This document shows, piece by piece, positions 16,246 through 41,702 of a stretch of 64,000 nt of DNA (positions are counted from its first letter, which is position 1; the number at the start of each line of letters is the position of its first letter). The notes under the pieces were generated by a model. That model had not been told where the DNA came from, searched no databases, and was given only the letters and a program-made list of their open reading frames with translations. The position numbers were made by a program, and so were the translations under genes. The stretch spans positions 984 to 64,983 of IMG/VR virus record IMGVR_UViG_3300009180_000041; one strand, written 5' to 3'. This DNA comes from a virus. Taxonomy: Duplodnaviria; Caudoviricetes.

Positions 16246-16319
16246 AAATAAAGAGTTTAATTTTTAAAAGAAGGTAATAAGATTTTAGATTTTATTACCT
16301 TTTTTTGTTATATTATAGT

Positions 16320-16634
16320 ATGATAAATAATAATAAAAAAAGAGAAATTGTAAGTAAAAAAATAGTGGAATTTACTAAAAATTATTTAAAAAATAAAAAT
16401 GTTAGTGAGTATTATTTAGGAACTTTAACAAATGATTTTTTTAAAGAAAAAAGTATTAAATTTGAAATATTAAAAGAAGAATATAGAAATACTATTAATT
16501 ATGAAAGAAATGGAATTAAGTATAGTATGAAAATTAACTTTTATGATTATAATGATAGATGTTATAAGTTATTAAGAGATGGGGGTTTGAATATAGTTGT
16601 AAGAAATAGAAAAAGAGTTATTATTTTAGATTAA
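16320..16634 (+). CDS. basic hypothetical protein, paralog of 20328..20624
   Basis: Shared VSKK(I/V).E...EYR.T..Y and YNDR.YKLLRDGG. Leaderless ATG at 16320. Confidence 0.75.
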   Translation: MINNNKKREIVSKKIVEFTKNYLKNKNVSEYYLGTLTNDFFKEKSIKFEILKEEYRNTINYERNGIKYSMKINFYDYNDRCYKLLRDGGLNIVVRNRKRVIILD

Positions 16635-16672
16635 AATAGATTTTTTAAATAAAATAAGTTATATTATAGTAT

Positions 16673-16948
16673 ATGAAAATAAAAGATATAAAAAAACAGT
16701 TTAAAAGTAAATTCGGATTAGAAATTTATAACTACAATGACGTTAATAAAGACAAAACAATTAGAAGATATAAAATAACATATATTGGAGACAAATCACA
16801 TGATATTGATTCTAATCAAATTGACCAAAACATAACTGAGTATTTTAATTATTTTAAAAATGAGTTGGGATTAAGTAATGTTACATTAGGAACAGGTAAT
16901 GGATGGTTCGGAAAACAAACAATAATAATTAAAGTAGATAATAAATAA
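16673..16948 (+). CDS. hypothetical protein
   Basis: ORF after the promoter at 16658. Confidence 0.65.
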   Translation: MKIKDIKKQFKSKFGLEIYNYNDVNKDKTIRRYKITYIGDKSHDIDSNQIDQNITEYFNYFKNELGLSNVTLGTGNGWFGKQTIIIKVDNK

Positions 16949-16951
16949 GTT

Positions 16952-17149
16952 ATGACAGTACAACAATTAATAGACAAATTAGAACAGATCGAAAACAAAC
17001 ACTTAAATGTAGTAATAAGTGGAACAGATCACACTGATTGGTTATATCATAATTCAATTACAGAACACGACATTGTAGAAAGAAACGTATTTGAAGAAGA
17101 TAGGGACCAATTTAGACGTAGATTAGTAATTAATGGAGGACAATTTTAA
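16952..17149 (+). CDS. hypothetical protein
   Basis: MTVQQLIDKL start. Confidence 0.65.
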   Translation: MTVQQLIDKLEQIENKHLNVVISGTDHTDWLYHNSITEHDIVERNVFEEDRDQFRRRLVINGGQF

Positions 17150-17150
17150 C

Positions 17151-17327
17151 ATGACACTACAAGACAGAATTGAGATATTACAAGAATTACTTGACAATCA
17201 AAAAGTCCTAACTAAAACATACAAAGACCATTGTGAAACACTACAGAAACAGGTCAATGAGGCAATTGAATTAATAAATAAATCACAACAAATAATAGAT
17301 TTTTACCAAAACAATGTTAGAATTTAA
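17151..17327 (+). CDS. small coiled-coil protein
   Basis: ATG follows the upstream stop. Confidence 0.55.
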   Translation: MTLQDRIEILQELLDNQKVLTKTYKDHCETLQKQVNEAIELINKSQQIIDFYQNNVRI

Positions 17328-17511
17328 AAGTCCTATACCTGTCATAGTTGAAACTAATAAAGACGGTTACGCGATTTATGTTGTAAATTCAGGTATGTTT
17401 GAAAATGATGTGTGGTGTGTAGTATTATGTGATGGTGGAATAGTTAGACACTACACAACAGACCAAATTAAAATACATCACAATACTACTTTTGAAATAA
17501 ATAAAAAATAG
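17314..17511 (+). CDS. hypothetical protein
   Basis: GYAIYV.NSGMFENDVWCVVL motif. Confidence 0.65.
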   Translation: MLEFKSPIPVIVETNKDGYAIYVVNSGMFENDVWCVVLCDGGIVRHYTTDQIKIHHNTTFEINKK

Positions 17512-17561
17512 ATTTTTTTAATAAAAAAGGTTATATTATATTATATAAAAAGATATAAGAT

Positions 17562-17801
17562 ATGAAAGTAAATTTAGACCAAAACGAATTAGAACTATTA
17601 ACAGAATTATTAAATCAAAACATAACTGTAACATTAAAAGTAGACACAGAATATGATGATGAGTGGGGGTTAGTAGTATTTGAAATAAAAGACTTAAATA
17701 TATGTCGAGACATTAATTGGTTAGTACAGAATGACGATGATATTGAAGAACTAAGGTTTCATGAATTAAACGATCTTATAACGTTCATAAAAGAACGTTA
17801 A
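17562..17801 (+). CDS. acidic hypothetical protein
   Basis: Own promoter at 17530. Confidence 0.65.
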   Translation: MKVNLDQNELELLTELLNQNITVTLKVDTEYDDEWGLVVFEIKDLNICRDINWLVQNDDDIEELRFHELNDLITFIKER

Positions 17802-17807
17802 TTAAAT

Positions 17808-17930
17808 TGTCAGGTAATACGTAATGTGAAAATGGTTATCACACCCAATCTTAATACCACGGTCTATAACCACTTAGACGCGAGACATTAGGAGGTTGTA
17901 TTGTTGCGAGTTCGAGTCTCGCCCTGACAA
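17808..17930 (+). ncRNA. tRNA-like RNA (123 nt) with non-canonical expanded centre
   Basis: Perfect acceptor stem TGTCAGG/CCTGACA, T arm GCGAG-TTCGAGT-CTCGC, D-like GTGA-AAATGGTTA-TCAC. No canonical anticodon arm. Confidence 0.7.
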
Positions 17931-17985
17931 CTAAAATAAAGTAAAATAATTTAGAGATTTTAAGTAAAATAAGTTATATTATAGT

Positions 17986-18249
17986 ATGATAAATAATAAA
18001 GAATTTGATTTAACAAATAAATTTGATAAGTTTATATTTGGTTTAATTGAAAGTAGAGCAAATGGTGATTGGAATACTTATGAAGATGAAGAAATTATTG
18101 GATATGATTGGGATTTAAGAGAAGAAGATTGGTTTGATTTAGATTTTAATTTTGAAAGTTTAGAAAAATATATTGGTGAGGGAATATATTATAATGAAAA
18201 TTGTAATGTAAATTTAGAAGATTATAAAATGATTGTAAAAATATATTAA
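17986..18249 (+). CDS. acidic hypothetical protein, paralog of 21721..21996
   Basis: Shared NGDW.TYED.EII.Y.WDLR.E.WFDLDF.F.SL..YIGEGI. Confidence 0.8.
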   Translation: MINNKEFDLTNKFDKFIFGLIESRANGDWNTYEDEEIIGYDWDLREEDWFDLDFNFESLEKYIGEGIYYNENCNVNLEDYKMIVKIY

Positions 18250-18317
18250 TAAAGAATTAGAATAATTTAAATAAAATAAGTTATATTATAGTAATAAAAA
18301 AATAAAGATAAAATAAG

Positions 18318-18809
18318 ATGGAAAATATATTCACAAGTAAAATCGAGTACATTAAAGTACAATTAAATGAAATTCACCCAAAATTAAGAGTAAATATCAC
18401 AAATGAAACAGTAGATAGTTTTGCCAAAATGATTGAACCCGAGTATTGGGACATGATTCAAGAAATAAAAGACGACAATGAACAAGACGAAGAAGACATT
18501 GAAGACTACATGACAATGGTAGGTAGTGATTATTTAGATCGTGAGTTTATGAAGTACATTTCAGAACAATTCATAAATAACTTAAGTACTAATGGAGTAA
18601 AATATGAGGACGGAAGTTTTACAGTACCAGAACAATTCAAACAAGAATTACATGAGTACTATAAAACAATTAAAGACTGGAGACAAAATCATGAATTAAT
18701 GACTGACATAACAACTTACGGATTAATTTGGGACATGTACTACTCACTAGACACTGACACGAGAGAACAAGTAAGTAGTGTATTAGAAGAGTACTTAATT
18801 AATAAATAA
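18318..18809 (+). CDS. acidic hypothetical protein
   Basis: Own promoter at 18280. Confidence 0.7.
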   Translation: MENIFTSKIEYIKVQLNEIHPKLRVNITNETVDSFAKMIEPEYWDMIQEIKDDNEQDEEDIEDYMTMVGSDYLDREFMKYISEQFINNLSTNGVKYEDGSFTVPEQFKQELHEYYKTIKDWRQNHELMTDITTYGLIWDMYYSLDTDTREQVSSVLEEYLINK

Positions 18810-19072
18810 AACACATAAAAAAATCAAATAAAAAACACAATTATGACAAAACACAGGTATCAATTAACAAGTAAACAAACAGGAGCAAGACAAGAAGTAG
18901 TAATTGAAGCAGACATAGCGAGTACAGCAGACATGATATGTGAAAGTCAATATGGCTCAAGTTTTTACTGGTATAGACTAGCTTAAACCACAAAATTCAC
19001 ACGATAGTATTGTGGATTATTAACAGTAACCAAGGAAACGTTAAATATATCCAACCCAAAGTACAATGTGGT

Positions 19073-19103
19073 AGACCCATACGAAAGTGTGGGTCTTTAT
19101 TTA
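19073..19103 (+). terminator. GAAA-tetraloop hairpin / intrinsic terminator
   Basis: AGACCCATAC-GAAA-GTGTGGGTCT followed by TTATTT. Confidence 0.7.
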
Positions 19104-19210
19104 TATGTATGTGGCTAACATATGTGTGGTAATGTATTCCAATGTTAAGTTGTTGTCCACTTTTGTTGTGCCCACTCCTGACCCTGTTATATCCCCATAA
19201 AAATATATAC

Positions 19211-19310
19211 AAAAAGATTCCTACATGTGACTCATTTACAATTTAATTTGGTTAAAGAGATTCCTACATGTAACAGTTAATACTGGGTTTGGGTTAAAGA
19301 GATTCCTACC
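19211..19310. repeat. three AGATTCCTAC boxes at 42-43 bp spacing
   Basis: GATTCCTAC at 19216, 19259 and 19301; two are preceded by GGTTAAAGA. Confidence 0.8.
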
Positions 19311-19399
19311 ACATATAATTTATATTAAATTTAGGTTTTAATTTTAAAAAAAGATAGTAAAAAACTGGACTTTATTATGGTAGTATGTTATATTATAGT

Positions 19400-19606
19400 A
19401 TGAAAAATAATATTAATAATTTTATTGACCACAACTTTAACGAGTTTATTAATTTGACTGACAGTGAAGTGTGTCACATTGATCTTAGTGAATTTACACA
19501 TGATGAAGTACTGTACTTACAGAGTATTGAAAGACATGATTATAGAAATATATGTGTGTATTATGCTCACTCAGACAATAAAGTGTGGGTTGAAAATATG
19601 TCGTAA
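19400..19606 (+). CDS. hypothetical protein, apparently leaderless
   Basis: ATG lies 13 nt after the promoter core at 19387. Confidence 0.6.
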   Translation: MKNNINNFIDHNFNEFINLTDSEVCHIDLSEFTHDEVLYLQSIERHDYRNICVYYAHSDNKVWVENMS

Positions 19607-19933
19607 TTGATTCCTACACCAATTAGATTGTATTGGATTATGGTGGTAAAAGATTCCTGCCACCATTATATGTACTTAAAATCCAGTTAAAAATACTAAA
19701 AGTAAAAAAGATAATTTTATGTTAAATGGTTATATTATAGTATGTTAAATAAAAATAATAAAAATATAATTAAAAAGTTATTAAATAAAAAAGATATATT
19801 ATATAAAATAAGTTATATTATAATAAATAAAATAATAATATATAAATAAAATAAATAATATATTATAAAAAAAGAAGAATAATAATAATAAAAAGGTTAT
19901 ATTATAATAATAAAAAGATAAAAAATAAAAAAT

Positions 19934-20251
19934 ATGAAAAATTTAGAAATTAGAAAACCAGGAAGACCAATTGTTGAAAACAGTAAAAGACAATTAGAAT
20001 TAAAAAGTAAAGAAGAATTAAGAAGTTTAGGTTTAATTAAAAAAGGAAGACCAATTAAAGAAGACTCTAAAAGACAAAATGAGTTAAAAAGAAAAGAAGA
20101 ATTAAGAAGTAAAGGTTTATTAAATGGTAAAAAAGGAAGACCAATTAATTTAAATAGTAAAAAACAATTAGAATTTAAAAGAAAAGAAGAATTAAGAAGT
20201 AAAGGTTTATTAAAATTAGGTAGACCAAAAGTTAATAAAGAAGAGGTTTAA
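19934..20251 (+). CDS. multi-AT-hook-like basic repeat protein
   Basis: Four GRP motifs with repeated NSK(R/K)Q.E..RKEELRS.GLL. Paralog of 23101. Confidence 0.8.
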   Translation: MKNLEIRKPGRPIVENSKRQLELKSKEELRSLGLIKKGRPIKEDSKRQNELKRKEELRSKGLLNGKKGRPINLNSKKQLEFKRKEELRSKGLLKLGRPKVNKEEV

Positions 20252-20265
20252 ATAACCTCTTTTTT
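20241..20265 (+). terminator. intrinsic terminator
   Basis: AAGAGGTT-TAAAT-AACCTCTT followed by a T run. Confidence 0.75.
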
Positions 20266-20327
20266 AATTTTTTAGAGTGTTGGTGTTAAATAAGTTATAT
20301 TATATTATATAAAAAGATAAAAAAATT

Positions 20328-20624
20328 ATGAATAAAAAAAGACAAGTTGTAAGTAAGAAAGTTAGAGAGTATGTTAGACAAATTATGAATAATAGAAATA
20401 TTGATGTAATTGGTATGGAAAAATTGAGAAAAGAATTTAAAAGTAGTAATTGTAAAGTATTATTAGAATTAGATAATGAGTATAGAAAGACTTGTATTTA
20501 TAGAAATGGAGATGTAATGTATAATAGTTTTTATAGTTATAATGATAGGTTTTATAAGTTATTAAGAGATGGTGGGGTTTATATGACTATAATTGGAAAT
20601 AAGATGGTTATTTGTTTAGAATAA
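20328..20624 (+). CDS. basic hypothetical protein, paralog of 16320..16634
   Basis: YNDRFYKLLRDGG. Confidence 0.75.
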   Translation: MNKKRQVVSKKVREYVRQIMNNRNIDVIGMEKLRKEFKSSNCKVLLELDNEYRKTCIYRNGDVMYNSFYSYNDRFYKLLRDGGVYMTIIGNKMVICLE

Positions 20625-20644
20625 CCATTTTTTGTTATATTTAT

Positions 20645-20915
20645 CACCGCACACTATTACACACAGTGGTTAGTTAAGACAGGCCTTTGAGCAAGTCCAA
20701 CGTTAGTACACAGCTGAGGCACCGTAACACGTTACACAATGAGTAAATTAGTGAGCAAATTGATTCGACGTTCTGACATTAGTAGCTTGATGCATTAGGC
20801 AGATGATAGCATATCTAGTTGCTCGACACTTAATTGTGTTCGGGCTTTCCTTGACTTTGATTCCTATGTTGATTACCTGTGTACTCAGTACACTGTTCAC
20901 AGCATGGGAAAGTGT
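20645..20915 (+). ncRNA. candidate structured non-coding RNA
   Basis: GC-richer island with no long ORF after a promoter-like GTTATATTTAT. Long-range pairs AGTACACAG/CTGTGTACT and GAGCAA/TTGCTC, plus local hairpins. Confidence 0.45.
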
Positions 20916-20959
20916 TTAGATAAATTTGATAAAACTAGTAAAACTTGTTATATTATAGT

Positions 20960-21142
20960 ATGTTAAATAAAGATATGAAAATAGGTACTAAAGTAAAAGC
21001 AGGTATTAATTTACCATTACAAAATATTGGTTATAGTATTGAGTATTTTGATTGTGAAATTGTTAAAATAAATAAAGTTACTTGTTTAGTAAAATTTGAA
21101 AATGGTAGTGTTAAGAAAGTAATGAAGAATTTAATAAAGTAA
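20960..21142 (+). CDS. small beta-rich hypothetical protein, apparently leaderless
   Basis: KIGTKVKA N-terminus shared with the next gene. Confidence 0.6.
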   Translation: MLNKDMKIGTKVKAGINLPLQNIGYSIEYFDCEIVKINKVTCLVKFENGSVKKVMKNLIK

Positions 21143-21155
21143 GTTATATTATAGT

Positions 21156-21434
21156 ATGATAAAAGATATTAAAATAGGTACTAAATTAAAAGCAGTTAAA
21201 GACGTTTATTATGTTTCAAAAGATACGTTTTATGAAGACTGGTATACACAAGAAGAAATAATGAAATGTGTAAATAAGATGATTACAGTAGGTGATGTGT
21301 ATGAGTTTGTTATTGATGATTTTGTTAATGAAGAATGGGAATGTATTGAAGGTAGTATGTTAGGTGAGTTTAGTGATGGTTATTTTGAAATGGCTAGTAT
21401 GATAAAAAAAGGAGTATTTGAAGTAGTAGAATAA
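21156..21434 (+). CDS. hypothetical protein, apparently leaderless
   Basis: ATG 13 nt after the promoter core. Ends VFEVVE. Confidence 0.7.
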   Translation: MIKDIKIGTKLKAVKDVYYVSKDTFYEDWYTQEEIMKCVNKMITVGDVYEFVIDDFVNEEWECIEGSMLGEFSDGYFEMASMIKKGVFEVVE

Positions 21435-21460
21435 GTTGGAGTAATAGGTTATATTATAGT

Positions 21461-21694
21461 ATGATAAAAAATAATTATAATTTAGTAAAAGAAGTTATTG
21501 AAAGTTTAGAAAGTACTAGTATTTTAAATACTTTTTTAAGTACTTTTAAAGTAGGTAAAAATATAAAAAAGAAAGATTATATTGAGTTTTTATGGAAATA
21601 TATTGATGATGGTAGTGAAATGTATTATGTTGAATTAAATTGGAAATATATTAAGAGTGGTGGTGATGAAAGTGTATTTGAAGTAGTAGATTAA
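21461..21694 (+). CDS. hypothetical protein, apparently leaderless
   Basis: ATG 13 nt after the promoter core. Ends VFEVVD. Confidence 0.65.
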   Translation: MIKNNYNLVKEVIESLESTSILNTFLSTFKVGKNIKKKDYIEFLWKYIDDGSEMYYVELNWKYIKSGGDESVFEVVD

Positions 21695-21720
21695 GTTAGG
21701 TAAATAAGTTATATTATAGT

Positions 21721-21996
21721 ATGTTAAATAAGGTTTTAGATTTAAAAAATAAATTTGATTTTTTCATTTATAGTTTAATTGAAAATAGAGAAAATGGTGA
21801 TTGGGATACTTATGAAGATGGAGAAATTATAGAGTATATTTGGGATTTGAGAGATGAAAGTTGGTTTGATTTAGATTTTAGTTTTAATAGTTTAAGTGAG
21901 TATATTGGTGAGGGAATATGTTATAGTGATGGTTATAGTGTAGAATTAAAAGATTATAAAATGATTGTTGAGATTGTTTATAAAGAATTAGATTAA
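21721..21996 (+). CDS. acidic hypothetical protein, paralog of 17986..18249
   Basis: Clear end-to-end similarity to 17986. Confidence 0.8.
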   Translation: MLNKVLDLKNKFDFFIYSLIENRENGDWDTYEDGEIIEYIWDLRDESWFDLDFSFNSLSEYIGEGICYSDGYSVELKDYKMIVEIVYKELD

Positions 21997-22034
21997 GTTA
22001 GTAAAGTAAGTTATATTATATAAGATAAAAAGTT

Positions 22035-22292
22035 ATGATAGTAAGTATAAAAGATACAATGTGTGACATTAAAACGTTCAATAGTACAAAATACATAAGT
22101 GAAAAAGATGTATTTAGAATAATTAACCGTAAGGTGAGAACAAAGAGGGGCAAAACAATGTCTAAAGAAAAAGTAGCTGATTATGAAAGTCAAGGTTTGA
22201 GATTACATAATGAAATGTACTATGTATTACTATTAGATTTTGATGATTGTTATCACAATAATATGTTAAAAACTGTCAATTACGAGGACTGA
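22035..22292 (+). CDS. hypothetical protein
   Basis: Own promoter at 22010. Confidence 0.6.
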   Translation: MIVSIKDTMCDIKTFNSTKYISEKDVFRIINRKVRTKRGKTMSKEKVADYESQGLRLHNEMYYVLLLDFDDCYHNNMLKTVNYED

Positions 22293-23719: not shown

Positions 23720-24298
23720 CTAGAATATATACTCAGAGTAAGTCTTCTTAGTAGGAACTACGTTAGGAAAGTAGTACTTTTCCATTAATTCACCATTAAA
23801 ATAAATAAACTTATAAAAACCCGTTGGTACCCAAGCACCTGTTGGGAGTACATTTTGTTGTGTAAATGTACAAACAATTTTGACTTTCACATTGCCTGTC
23901 ATACTTAAGTTTCTCTCGTGTAATTCCAATACTCTCCACACAGTTCTGTTAAGTTTTTCGTTTTGTAAACAACAATTTAAGTACGAAAACGTTTTCAATA
24001 GTATTTCCTTACTACAATTAAAACTAGCAGCAGGTGCCATATGACCTTTGTCGTAAACATTGTTTACATAGTCGTTATTGTCAGATGTAATATAACCACT
24101 TACAGTGTAAAAATCCATTCCTACTCTTGAGGCTTTACCATCAGTACAAAGGACTGTGTATTCTGACCACAATGGTTGTTGTTTAACTTCACTGTACATG
24201 GTTTTATAAATACCCATGTTAACAAACACACTGTCTCTCTGACTGTATAAACTCAGACTAATGAGACTAAAGACTAATACTAATATATATTTTTTCAT
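23720..24298 (-). CDS. secreted DNA/RNA non-specific endonuclease (NucA/EndA family)
   Basis: Signal peptide, YDKGHMAPAA, LNRTVWRVLE and VPTGFYK. Confidence 0.9.
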   Translation of the reverse strand: MKKYILVLVFSLISLSLYSQRDSVFVNMGIYKTMYSEVKQQPLWSEYTVLCTDGKASRVGMDFYTVSGYITSDNNDYVNNVYDKGHMAPAASFNCSKEILLKTFSYLNCCLQNEKLNRTVWRVLELHERNLSMTGNVKVKIVCTFTQQNVLPTGAWVPTGFYKFIYFNGELMEKYYFPNVVPTKKTYSEYIF

Positions 24299-24649
24299 TT
24301 AATTTTGTTTTACTACTTTAAATAATGCTTTTTCAATTATGTATCCATTATTAATAAAATACTTTAAACTGTCTACATTACAGTGGGCATACACTGTTTT
24401 ATTTGTTTCTTTTACTTTTGAGTCTCTGTAGTTCCATAGGAGTTTATATATGCCTTTACTTCTGTGTTCTTCTTTAACATAAGCATGACAAAGATACACT
24501 ACTGTAGGATGTTCAACATACGAAACAATACCTACTAATTCATCTTTAATCCAACAACCATAGTACTTTGCTGATTCATCTAGTAAGTCTGGTTTTAAAC
24601 TACCAAATACTTTTTCTACTTCTTTGTATGTAATACTTTTAATTTCCAT
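24299..24649 (-). CDS. GNAT acetyltransferase
   Basis: AYVKEEHRSKGIYKLL acetyl-CoA motif. Confidence 0.85.
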   Translation of the reverse strand: MEIKSITYKEVEKVFGSLKPDLLDESAKYYGCWIKDELVGIVSYVEHPTVVYLCHAYVKEEHRSKGIYKLLWNYRDSKVKETNKTVYAHCNVDSLKYFINNGYIIEKALFKVVKQN

Positions 24650-24833
24650 TTTTTATGCCTAATGCCCAAACTGAGTTTGGAAATAATTGTACTCTTAATT
24701 CTAAAATCCTGTCTCTGTGATTTTGAAACATATCTCCGTAGGAGGGTTTAAAACCACTTAACACCATCTTAGTCATCTCATAATCTAACTTTACTATTTC
24801 ACTTGTTTTCTTTTGAAATTCTGTGTAATTCAT
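24639..24833 (-). CDS. hypothetical protein
   Basis: First gene of the minus-strand operon, with TTGGTT-N17-TATACT upstream. Confidence 0.65.
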   Translation of the reverse strand: MNYTEFQKKTSEIVKLDYEMTKMVLSGFKPSYGDMFQNHRDRILELRVQLFPNSVWALGIKNGN

Positions 24834-38998: not shown

Positions 38999-39427
38999 AT
39001 GAATAAAACTGAATTTATACAAATTATTCGTGAAGTTGTGAAAAAAGAAATTCGCTCTGCTATTAGAGAAGAATTACAACGACAGCCTTTACAAGAAGTA
39101 AAAAAACCACTTAATAATGTGTTAGAAAATATTCCTAAAACTAAAAAACTTGTATCTACAGGTAATATTTTAGAAGATTTAATAAATGAAACTGCTCAAA
39201 GTGATTGGCGCTCAGTAGGAAACTTTACATCAGCTGATGCATCCAATTTTCAATCTATAAATAATCAATCTTTTGAAATGGATTTGGGAAAAACAAAACC
39301 ATCTTCAGTAGAATCAATGTTAAATAATGCTCCTAAAGTAGCATCACCAGAAATGATTCAATCAGTAGCAGAAGTTCCTGATTTTACAGCGATGATGTCA
39401 ACAATGAAAAATAAAGGATTATTATAA
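38999..39427 (+). CDS. late hypothetical protein
   Basis: IIREVVKKEIRSAIREEL and LINETA, with a late motif upstream. Confidence 0.75.
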   Translation: MNKTEFIQIIREVVKKEIRSAIREELQRQPLQEVKKPLNNVLENIPKTKKLVSTGNILEDLINETAQSDWRSVGNFTSADASNFQSINNQSFEMDLGKTKPSSVESMLNNAPKVASPEMIQSVAEVPDFTAMMSTMKNKGLL

Positions 39428-39837
39428 TGTCAGTTAGAAATATTTATACATATGCTGATGTAACTAGTAATACTACTATAAAACGAGAAATTGGAATAGG
39501 TGTTCAATTTACTGAAAATGGTGTTTTCACTTCAACTTATACTACATTATCTCAAGTTAAAAATCAACTTATAAATTATATTCTAACTAATCCTGGTGAA
39601 TCTTTATTTAATCCTTCATTTGGAAGTGGAATAAGACAATTATTATTTGAACCCAATGTTAATTTAGACAATATTGAGTATTCTTTAAAAGAAGGTATTC
39701 AAGCATATGTTCAAAATATCATAGTAAATAGTGTCACCGCTACTTCTGATAATAATATTGTTTATATAAATGTAAATTATAGTATAAATAATCAACAAGA
39801 TGAATTAAATATAGCTTTAACAACTAATGTAATATAA
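39427..39837 (+). CDS. baseplate wedge subunit, gp25/GpW-like
   Basis: QVKNQLINYILTNPGE..FNPSFGSGIRQLLFE. Confidence 0.88.
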   Translation: MSVRNIYTYADVTSNTTIKREIGIGVQFTENGVFTSTYTTLSQVKNQLINYILTNPGESLFNPSFGSGIRQLLFEPNVNLDNIEYSLKEGIQAYVQNIIVNSVTATSDNNIVYINVNYSINNQQDELNIALTTNVI

Positions 39838-41702
39838 TGAGTATACAATATTTAAATAAAGATTTTAATCAATTAAAACAAGCTTTAACTGATTACATAA
39901 AAAACAACTATAATAATTATAGTGATTTTGGTCCCTCTTCACCAGGTAATATGTTTAGTGATTTGGCTGCTTATGTAGGTGATGTACTTAGTTTTTATAC
40001 TGATACTCAAGTTCAAGAAACTTTATTATTAGAAGCTAAAGAAACAAAAAATATACTTCCTATAGCTTATAGTTTAGGATACAATCCTGTTATAGCTAAA
40101 TCATCAACTGTAGTATTAGATGTTTATCAACTAGTACCATCAGATGCTTCTAATAATTTCTTACCTGATTATAGATATACTACTAGAATACCAGAACAAA
40201 GTCAAGTACAAAGTACTTCTCAACCTAATGTTTTATTCTTAACAGAAAATCTAGTTGATTTTGCTTACTCAGGTTCAAATGATCCAACTGATGTAAGTAT
40301 TTATAGTTACTACTCAGGAACTAATAATCCTGAATTTTATGTACTTAAAAAACAAGTACAAGCATACTCAGGTCAAGTAAAAACACAAAATTTTAGTTTT
40401 ACTAATATTCAACAATTTAGTAAAGTTACTTTAAATGATACTAATATTGTTAAAATTTTAAATGTTACTGACAGTGATGAAAATACTTGGTATCAAGTTC
40501 CTTATTTAGCTCAAGATACTATTATAGATAAAACATATAATATCCCTGTTTATGAACCTAATTACTACTATTATAGAGATCAAGCTCCATATATGTTAAG
40601 GCTTAAAAAAGTTCAAAAACGTTTTACAGCTCAATTTGTAGATAATACTAATTTAGAAATTAGTTTTGGAGCTGGAACAACAGGACAAGCTGATGAGTTA
40701 ATTATACCAAATCCATATAATGTAGGTATTGGATTACAAGATGGTATTAGTAAATTTAATACAGCGTTTGATCCAGCTAATTTCTTTTTTACAAACGAAT
40801 ATGGTCAATCACCTGTAAATACAACTTTAACTTTCACTTATTTAACTGGTTATGGAGCTCAAAGTAATGTTCCTGCTAATGATATTAATATTAATTCTTT
40901 AGTAAATCCTCAAATAGACAGTTATGGTTTAAATTCATCTGTTGTTCAAACTATTTTAAATTCAATTAGATTTAATAATAATGTTGGATCTACAGGAGGA
41001 GGACCTGGTGATACAATTGAAGAAATTAGATTAAATGCTTTAGCTAATTTTCCTACTCAATTAAGAAACGTAACTCAAGCTGATTATTTAGTTAGAACAT
41101 TAAGTATGCCTAGTGAATTTGGAACAATTACTAAAGCTTATGTTATTCAAGATCTTAATTTAAATGCTGATAGAGATAGAACATCTGTATTTAATTCAAA
41201 TCCTTTAGGTTTAAGTGTTTATGTTTTAACTACTGATATAAATGGTAAATTAACTCAAACAAATCAAGCAGTGAAACAAAATCTTAAAACATATTTAAGT
41301 CAATTTAAAATGTTAACAGATGCTGTTAGTATTAAAGACGCTTATTATATTAATATAGGTATTAATTTTGAAATACAAGTACTACAAGGATTTAATGCTC
41401 AACAAGTATTAACAGGAGCCATCAGTAGTTTAAAATCATTTTTTGACACACAAAAATGGTCAATTAATCAACCTATTATTTTATCTCAAGTTGAAAATAT
41501 TATATCAGCTGCTAATGTAAATGGAGTAGCCGCTGTTAAAAAACTTGAATTTGTAAATAAATCTGGAGGTACTTATAGTCCATATTCTTATGATTTAACT
41601 GGAGCTAATTTAAATGGAATTCTTTATCCTAGTTTAGATCCTATGATTTTTGAAATAAGATATCCTGATCAAGATATATTAGGACGAGTTGTTAGTATTT
41701 AA
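39837..41702 (+). CDS. baseplate wedge protein, gp6/GpJ-like
   Basis: YLNKDFNQLKQAL, AAYVGDVLSFY, GGGPGDTIEEIR..A...QLRNVTQADY. Confidence 0.9.
   Translation: MSIQYLNKDFNQLKQALTDYIKNNYNNYSDFGPSSPGNMFSDLAAYVGDVLSFYTDTQVQETLLLEAKETKNILPIAYSLGYNPVIAKSSTVVLDVYQLVPSDASNNFLPDYRYTTRIPEQSQVQSTSQPNVLFLTENLVDFAYSGSNDPTDVSIYSYYSGTNNPEFYVLKKQVQAYSGQVKTQNFSFTNIQQFSKVTLNDTNIVKILNVTDSDENTWYQVPYLAQDTIIDKTYNIPVYEPNYYYYRDQAPYMLRLKKVQKRFTAQFVDNTNLEISFGAGTTGQADELIIPNPYNVGIGLQDGISKFNTAFDPANFFFTNEYGQSPVNTTLTFTYLTGYGAQSNVPANDININSLVNPQIDSYGLNSSVVQTILNSIRFNNNVGSTGGGPGDTIEEIRLNALANFPTQLRNVTQADYLVRTLSMPSEFGTITKAYVIQDLNLNADRDRTSVFNSNPLGLSVYVLTTDINGKLTQTNQAVKQNLKTYLSQFKMLTDAVSIKDAYYINIGINFEIQVLQGFNAQQVLTGAISSLKSFFDTQKWSINQPIILSQVENIISAANVNGVAAVKKLEFVNKSGGTYSPYSYDLTGANLNGILYPSLDPMIFEIRYPDQDILGRVVSI

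Follow-up and report, generated by a model that had tools for sequence, protein, structure and literature searches.

Small genes with a nearly cytosine-free coding strand in the putative early region of large T4-like freshwater phages

Viral genomes evade attack through their composition in several known ways, among them restriction-site avoidance, the one-orientation EcoP15I sites of T7, CpG depletion against ZAP and the footprints left by APOBEC enzymes, and a CTP-limitation hypothesis has been put forward for the loss of C in coronaviruses. Here we describe small genes with an almost cytosine-free sense strand in a 64,000-nucleotide stretch of phage DNA (the window), which covers bases 984-64983 of the 64,983-base IMG/VR virus record IMGVR_UViG_3300009180_000041 (CheckV completeness 39%). 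In these genes, as in the viral examples, composition would be shaped by host attack or by the nucleotide pool. However, viral compositional evasion is genome-wide, partial and motif-based, whereas the trait described here is gene-specific, near-total, strand-specific and conserved in particular gene families.

Engineered RNAs offer two further comparisons. C-less and G-less cassettes for in vitro transcription resemble the C-free genes, as we call them for brevity, in that a unit is completed without one nucleoside triphosphate, but they are short and non-coding, whereas the phage genes are natural, conserved and protein-coding. The ACA-less mRNAs that resist the MazF endoribonuclease in single-protein production likewise have an RNase target removed and the protein kept; they lose one trinucleotide synonymously, whereas the C-free genes lose C in every context and draw on a reduced amino-acid alphabet. 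In their placement, the C-free genes recall the hyperplastic early regions of T4-like phages, which are likewise arrays of small, fast-evolving, promoter-proximal ORFs of unassigned function. We know of no nucleotide exclusion in T4 early genes. Long stretches without one nucleotide are rare in natural DNA, according to the available part of one study (PMC6526412), and the literature that we searched holds no precedent for natural genes that exclude one nucleotide and five amino acids over long evolution.

The genes form single promoter-ORF-terminator units, often side by side, in a variable early region. We conclude that selection on the transcribed ORF, at the level of its nucleotide sequence, very probably keeps their coding strand C-free. 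The genes make up a guild in the early region of large T4-like freshwater phages, with small and mostly very acidic products that belong to at least 17 unrelated families. The label "early" is read from position, since the genes lie ahead of the structural genes, among small ORFs in a block rich in promoters, and is meant as a presumption about their timing.

Cytosine depletion in the window

ORFs were called mechanically. Sense-strand C makes up 0.7-3.6% of seven small ORFs between 16.3 and 22.0 kb, compared with ~11% elsewhere and 11.9% over the whole window. These seven hold 2-10 C each, and the other early ORFs (n=47) have 5.0-16.5% C. Ranked by C fraction, five early ORFs lie at 0.7-1.6% and two at 3.3-3.6%, after which a continuum runs from 5.0% upward. 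A preliminary description, made from the letters alone, had counted C by hand in five of the ORFs and in one spacer, and all six counts were reproduced exactly; the two family C ORFs listed below add to its list. With seven low-C ORFs, the window is the richest case that we have seen. The C-poor features are as follows.

16320..16634, + strand: C-free ORF of family B; 104 aa, basic (+10); 5 C in 315 nt
17986..18249, + strand: C-free ORF of family A; 87 aa, acidic (-14); 3 C in 264 nt
19697..19957, no strand assigned: C-free, A-rich spacer, probably non-coding; 0 C in 261 nt
20328..20624, + strand: C-free ORF of family B; 98 aa, basic (+9); 4 C in 297 nt
20960..21142, + strand: low-C ORF of family C; 60 aa; 6 C in 183 nt; its N-terminus resembles that of the 21156 ORF
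21156..21434, + strand: low-C ORF of family C; 92 aa, acidic (-10); 10 C in 279 nt
21461..21694, + strand: C-free ORF of family D; 77 aa; 3 C in 234 nt
21721..21996, + strand: C-free ORF of family A; 91 aa, acidic (-15); 2 C in 276 nt
20945..22057, + strand: C-poor block of the last four ORFs, each with its own promoter-like repeat and no terminator between them; C gaps of 99-247 nt

A geometric model predicts 0.31 C-free gaps of at least 80 nt for the window; there are 19, and all of the five longest (158, 254, 261, 221 and 247 nt) fall within 16.5-22.1 kb. G is abundant in the low-C ORFs, as first described, at 15-23%. At the third codon position of C-free ORFs, G is ordinary (8-15%) whereas C stands at 0-2%, and C+T amounts to 36-41% in C-free and ordinary early ORFs alike. 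The neighbouring gene at 18318 had been called C-rich in an AC context; it contains 63 C, 71% of them preceded by A.

Codon choice was examined for Leu, Ser, Arg, Phe, Tyr, Asn, Asp, Cys, Ile, Val and Gly, with the other early genes as the expectation. Where a synonymous choice exists, codons containing C were used 5 times in 420, against 80.9 expected (sd 7.6), a skew far beyond the codon and amino-acid background. By amino acid, the counts include Leu 0/43, Ser 1/31, Arg 0/21, Tyr 0/46, Asn 1/53 and Asp 2/47. For the NNY pairs of Phe, Tyr, Asn, Asp and Cys, 4 of 189 codons end in C, where simple arithmetic gives an expectation of ~43. Because the NNC and NNU codons of one amino acid share one tRNA, a tRNA-level cause is excluded. 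The five amino acids whose codons all contain C (Pro, His, Gln, Thr and Ala) make up 4.5% of residues against a background of 16.8%, so that amino-acid composition is shifted as well, as the preliminary description had stated, and free use is limited to the 15 amino acids encodable without C. Since both synonymous choice and the amino-acid repertoire are affected, the constraint lies on the nucleotide sequence. The remaining C is indeed mostly obligatory, with 27 of 32 C-containing codons specifying Thr, Ala, Gln or Pro and 5 being synonymous choices.

These data bear on the idea that the cause lies in the proteins or in translation, either because acidic proteins that lack the five C-obligate amino acids are required or because certain tRNAs are avoided. 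Most products of C-free ORFs are very acidic (-7 to -24), as such a need would have it, but synonymous C is avoided as strongly as obligatory C, even between the NNC and NNU codons of the same tRNA, and the basic family B shares the trait. We find a cause of this kind hardly credible.

Residual C follows no motif. The 27 strictest ORFs contain 68 C in 7,176 nt, distributed evenly along the ORFs (Kolmogorov-Smirnov p 0.09), with 19, 20, 15 and 14 in successive quartiles and no 5' avoidance. By codon position they number 20, 36 and 12. The preceding base is A in 39 cases, G in 13, T in 10 and C in 6, a distribution that mirrors the ACN codons of Thr as much as it does any enzyme preference. ACA (Thr) is still found among them, accounting for 4 of the 68. 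A motif-avoiding mRNA of the ACA-less type was considered and rejected: all contexts and codon positions are depleted, the amino-acid set is altered and ACA persists.

Conservation in unrelated gene families

Across 11 loci, ORFs with less than 4% C number 32 and fall into 17 blastp clusters, of which seven recur in different phages, C-free every time. In hhalign comparisons, family A matches the other families with less than 2% probability, and one C-free ORF of the relative L016 is a distant member of family A. C-free ORFs often lie side by side: L115:1274-3222 contains five, and L116/G006 contains four, with 2 C over ~790 nt in the latter. Their neighbours are ordinary in every case, and we saw no contig with a general lack of C.

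Whole-genome scans of both strands found 2 C-free ORFs in G001, 4 in G006 and 1 in G018, all on the sense strand and in the early region; the same scans found none in G003, G004, G005, G011, G012, G014, G015, G016 or G017. There is also a cultured example. Gene gp143 of Flavobacterium phage immuto (68330-68686) has 5 C in 357 nt, the next lowest ORF of that phage standing at 5.5%, and encodes a product of charge -21 behind its own promoter and before its own terminator. Among cultured phages, homologs of family A, family D and gp143 were not found outside immuto isolates.

The C-free ORFs are real protein-coding genes. AlphaFold predicts a small alpha/beta domain for family A with a pLDDT of 91.8 (the 21721 product) and gives 77.5 for family B (the 20328 product). 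No function could be assigned from these proteins: Pfam and PHROGs searches with 14 of them gave two sub-threshold matches only, Foldseek returned nothing at E <= 0.001 for family A against PDB and BFVD or for family B against PDB, and the ESM Atlas held no usable match. A wide VIA-align search peaked at Z 5.5 and listed many winged-helix-like rows at Z 3-4.5, values that fall into the tool's stated noise range.

The substitution spectra of these families were compared with a control of RNA-ligase orthologs of similar divergence. The family A paralogs at 17986 and 21721 share 66% amino-acid identity, and the family B paralogs at 16320 and 20328 share 40%. Across three paralog pairs, a comparison proposed in the preliminary description, C is rarely involved in nucleotide differences (3 of 50 for the family A pair, then 7/108 and 11/71). 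The same holds for comparisons with L089 (2/78 and 3/68) and for family D, in which 21 pairs that differ by 0.30 per site show C in 42 of 1426 differences (3%). In the RNA-ligase control, the corresponding counts are 79/190 and 109/317 (34-42%).

More distant members behave likewise. L089, a metagenome contig with a different promoter type, carries a family A homolog (L089:1725-2018) that is 53% identical in amino acids to the 21721 product, has 0 C in 294 nt and sits among ordinary neighbours. In other phage contigs, homologs of 50-60% identity hold 0-3 C. Homologs of family D in 7 viral contigs have 3, 0, 1, 0, 10, 0 and 0 C; the homolog with 10 C is a family D domain inside a longer ORF (L114:2953-3543, 8.5% C), the sole exception to the C-free pattern among the members seen at the DNA level. 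A search of viral contigs for families A and B gave none. Divergence within families amounts to 30% of sites and 47-50% of residues, and the genes are still C-free. At the protein level, a profile search of 1.84 billion proteins yielded 14 representatives of family A. Nine members of 91-120 residues, down to ~35% identity, contain no Pro, His, Gln, Thr or Ala at all (P0002-4, P0006, P0022, P0023, P0025, P0028 and P0033), and four of the 14 carry 10-15 such residues. Three families comprise 8, 13 (family B) and 27 (family D) protein clusters, and family D gives the same protein-level picture as family A. Taken together, these sequence comparisons indicate that the trait is conserved, maintained and not recent.

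The preliminary description had listed, as one possible cause, extreme C>T mutation of the non-template strand. In this account, deamination, or UV damage at dipyrimidines, acts on the exposed non-template strand of heavily transcribed genes, and no selection is needed. C is replaced by T and not by purines, as the equal C+T of both ORF classes shows; TpC and GpC stand at 0.74 and 0.81 of expectation across the whole early region, and G exceeds C on the sense strand throughout these genomes. All of this would suit mutation. However, adjacent genes behind the same promoter motif are normal, the loss stops at the ORF in relatives, and the ORFs are intact, well-folding and conserved, with the trait following families into genomes that have other promoters and neighbours. 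Even if C were only gained, the control gene would lead us to expect ~0.05 C-involving differences per site at this divergence, or by our arithmetic ~12 per family D pair, against 2 observed. With C loss kept over ~0.3 substitutions per site, extreme mutation is not supported as the cause, and we rate an origin of this kind as quite improbable. A hypermutation tract was also tried as a candidate and rejected: flanks keep C in L016, L064, L115 and immuto, and there is no gene damage, the ORFs being intact, present in 8, 13 and 27 clusters, and predicted to fold.

Alternatively, the genes could have arisen recently out of C-free, AT-rich intergenic DNA, or have come from a skewed donor, and could simply not have had the time to gain C. 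Intergenic DNA is C-poor (5-10%), a 261-nt C-free spacer lies among the genes and the region is highly variable, which would all fit a recent birth. But the genes remain C-free at the divergence given above, no generally C-lacking contig was seen, the neighbours of C-free ORFs are ordinary, and third-position G is ordinary where third-position C is nearly gone. Youth or import is therefore very improbable.

Expression units and the cytosine-guanine pair

In L115, L016, L064 and immuto, each C-free ORF stands behind a promoter of its own and an A-rich leader, and a G+C hairpin terminator closes the unit. C occurs there in the promoter-upstream element, from +1 to +16 past the stop codon, and in both arms of the terminator hairpin, so loss at flanking sites is not shared in these relatives; the preliminary description had named such shared loss as a sign against selection. 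By this layout, the transcripts of C-free units would be only ~300-400 nt long, each with its own terminator. The flanks in the window are C-poor, as is all intergenic DNA there, with 5-10% C ahead of ORFs. The C content of neighbouring genes that share the promoter type is normal. At 20328..20624, a hairpin and T-run lie directly past the stop, and the first C stands at +1 after it.

Promoter-like repeats in the window share the word GTTATATTATA, which occurs in ~30 copies within positions 1-23100, all on the + strand, with an upstream element TTGAYTTT/TAGATTTT. ATG directly follows the word in ten copies, which suggests that the messages behind it may be leaderless. This motif is not a dominant repeat in immuto. 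The following elements belong to the C-poor genes.

16307..16319, + strand: promoter-like repeat GTTATATTATAGT, one of the ~30 copies, directly before the ATG of the 16320 ORF, which looks leaderless
19731, 19795, 19814, 19859 and 19898: promoter-like repeats of the C-free spacer 19697..19957
20949, 21145, 21450, 21710 and 22012: promoter repeats of the C-poor block 20945..22057

A second motif, GATTCCTRC, has nine + strand copies (9352, 16176, 16220, 19216, 19259, 19301, 19609, 19652 and 20859), grouped in intergenic DNA a short way before some early promoters, and one opposite-strand copy in the whole window.

A Shine-Dalgarno-like word precedes only 4 of 80 ORFs, and the leaders are rich in A, which occupies position -3 in 61% and position -5 in 68%. 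Scarcity of Shine-Dalgarno sequences is a sign of Bacteroidota, which suggests a Bacteroidota host. It also touches on a further explanation for C-free RNA. Rho loads on C-rich unstructured RNA, and a message without C might escape Rho-dependent termination or stay free of G-C pairs for translation that is leaderless or lacks a Shine-Dalgarno sequence. Many C-free genes do look leaderless, and predicted folding is weaker than in neighbours (-11.9 versus -14.4 kcal/mol per 100 nt). But the folding difference is small and overlaps that of the neighbours, the transcripts are short and have their own terminators, and residual C shows no 5' avoidance. Effects of this kind act at a threshold or at the 5' end and cannot explain why the last C is purged across the ORF at the cost of five amino acids, and we regard them as an improbable cause.

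Because mutation alone, recent birth, import, tRNA usage and protein composition are each contradicted, what remains is selection against the rC:dG pair in the transcribed ORF. As a consequence, RNA polymerase would need no CTP and would meet no template G from start to stop, and the mRNA would offer no C. Such selection could act on either side of the pair.

On the template side, the base avoided would be G. In phages that replace G by a 7-deazaguanine derivative, modified G may be slow to read, or may be excised, nicked or adducted by host defence, and a G-free template would be readable by naive host RNA polymerase. The strand logic fits, as a base lost from the template strand blocks transcription and a base lost from the other strand does not. 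According to the available part of a study of these phages, DpdA3 completely replaces G by 7-deazaguanine, immuto DNA lacks a dG peak, and DpdA3 phages include Campylobacter CP220, Cellulophaga phiST and Flavobacterium immuto (Cui et al. 2023, PMC10516641). Relatives of the window phage have the same gene set, and immuto has one C-free gene; in the available part of that study (PMC10516641), a link of G modification to the strand composition of genes is not described, and our scan of CP220 found no C-free ORF.

The complete relative G001, which has two C-free ORFs, carries in L095:7156-12666 a row of MazG-like, FolE, HGPRT-like phosphoribosyltransferase, QueE, QueD, QueC and DpdA3-like genes. 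Its DpdA3-like protein is 36% identical (E 7e-46) to the immuto DNA guanine transglycosylase and 34% identical to the CP220 counterpart. The cluster has the same make-up as in immuto and is present in 7 of 11 related IMG/VR genomes that are at least 90% complete. Homologs of DpdA3 are found in G001, G004, G005, G006, G015, G016 and G017, and QueC in G001, G004, G005, G006 and G015; QueC is absent from G003, G011, G012 and G014. A scan for Pfam TGT (PF01702) found none in 5/5 genomes, as expected of the divergent DpdA3 subfamily in the available part of its description (Cui et al. 2023, PMC10516641).

The modification genes lend the template side circumstantial support. Among genomes at least 90% complete, C-free ORFs occur in 3 of 9 with DpdA3 (G001, G006 and immuto) and in 0 of 4 without it (G003, G011, G012 and G014), but the difference is not significant (hypergeometric p = 0.29) and is confounded by a probably shared host group. 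Six DpdA3-positive genomes, including CP220, have no C-free ORF, and all other early genes are read from templates with ~10% G. No FolE, QueD, QueE, QueC or DpdA3 match was found in the window's own record, which is 39% complete, and the closest complete relative, G003, lacks these genes. In five fragmentary records with C-free ORFs, a DpdA3 search found none, which speaks neither for nor against. G018, 82% complete, has a C-free family-D-like ORF (G018:43937-44194, 3 C in 258 nt), and neither gene, DpdA3 or QueC, turned up in its available part; should the rest of the genome also be without them, G018 may count as a counter-example. Additionally, bacterial RNA polymerases tolerate small 7-deazapurine changes well, with inhibition at initiation and no miscoding, as far as the available part of the report describes (Raindlova et al. 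2016, PMC4838386). Of the suggestion that G-free templates answer modified G, then, the base-modification genes were found in complete relatives, and the association with C-free ORFs did not hold up statistically. We consider a template-side cause rather unlikely, but it is the main rival of the mechanism preferred below.

We tentatively prefer a mechanism on the RNA side, because depletion spares no context, C is allowed beyond the stop codon and bacterial RNA polymerases reportedly cope well with small 7-deazapurine changes. Expression of the C-free genes would then be immune to a host attack that costs the phage something for each C in the message. Chain termination by ddhCTP, the product of prokaryotic viperins, CTP shortage and C-specific RNases are mechanisms known from the literature; candidate attacks here would be ddhCTP, a lack of CTP, and single-strand endoribonucleases of MazF type or HEPN type that require C. 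The preliminary description had proposed C-free mRNA resistant to such agents as one of its alternatives, and it would suit the pattern as well as G-free templates do. The distribution of residual C is what a cost per C from transcription start to stop codon would give. A C past the stop codon or within the terminator stem would cost nothing, and C reappears exactly there. The C-free genes would be first-line proteins, probably for counter-defence or host takeover. It is quite possible, if somewhat short of probable, that they form an immediate-early guild written in a three-letter alphabet (A, G and T) and a 15-amino-acid code, immune to a defence directed at RNA cytosine (or template guanine).

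Several observations weigh against this proposal. The trait is rare, being found in 2 of 80 loci around the RNA ligase and in 3 of 13 complete genomes, and most genes behind the same promoters do without it. One 5'-UTR, that of L064:15922, has a C at -8. Nor is the constraint absolute, as the family B homologs (13 clusters) have 4-11 Gln, Thr or His per ~100 residues. No viperin, toxin or RNase has been linked to these phages, the proteins have no recognisable function by Pfam, PHROGs, Foldseek, VIA-align or Atlas, and "counter-defence" is a guess from protein size, charge and position. Finally, sequence cannot separate an absence of C in RNA from an absence of G in the template.

If the trait is a shield against an attack directed at cytosine (or template guanine), it points to an unrecognised axis of defence and counter-defence. 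Freshwater Bacteroidota would then possess a widespread and unrecognised C- or G-directed defence, and the compositional signature alone would flag new counter-defence genes. The families further imply that stable folded proteins evolve within a 15-letter amino-acid alphabet. The question is directly testable, since gp143 belongs to a phage in culture, vB_FspM_immuto_2-6A, whose host, Flavobacterium sp. LMO8, is cultured as well.

Genome setting and neighbouring elements

The window has a G+C content of 28%, and its + strand carries nearly all genes. These include a sigma factor, RNA ligase, homing endonucleases, endonuclease VII, a primase-like protein, and the T4-like baseplate proteins listed here.

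39427-39834: gp25, baseplate
39837-41702: gp6-like wedge protein, baseplate

The RNA ligase has 196 relatives among viral contigs. Complete relatives are 160-173 kb long and encode a Gp23-type capsid protein, gp32, a T4-type terminase and a prohead protease; the T4-like set of G001 consists of Gp23, gp32, Terminase_6N, Peptidase_S77 and a sheath protein. No close cultured phage was found, the RNA ligase being less than 30% identical to any phage record, and phage records contain no near-identical DNA. Sequence words of the window are present in 10 DNA sequencing runs from 7 studies; one of these runs may be the source, and one from a different study contains 0.79 of the sampled words; none of the matching runs listed is an RNA run.

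The early region varies strongly from relative to relative, and the neighbours of its small ORFs include homing endonucleases and RNA-repair genes. One neighbour in the window is a repeat protein of moderately low C.

19934..20251, + strand: protein with three to four repeats that carry GRP (AT-hook-like) motifs; 105 aa; 16 C (5%)
20236-20266: terminator after the repeat protein

A homolog (L089:426-712) also lies beside C-free genes, so this type of protein accompanies them in both phages. As the homolog has ordinary C, the repeat-protein family is not C-constrained elsewhere.

ARAGORN and Rfam scans of the window, including two C-normal non-coding stretches, gave no match. One of these, 20636-20935, places ~300 nt of C-normal DNA between C-free genes and has an unremarkable folding z of -1.41. 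The other, 17806-17930, is closed by an 8-bp stem, includes a T-arm-like hairpin (fold z -2.97) and may be a tRNA-like or degenerate tRNA element. The sole minus-strand block of the window, 23720-24833, encodes a DNA/RNA non-specific endonuclease and a GNAT acetyltransferase and is locally richer in C.

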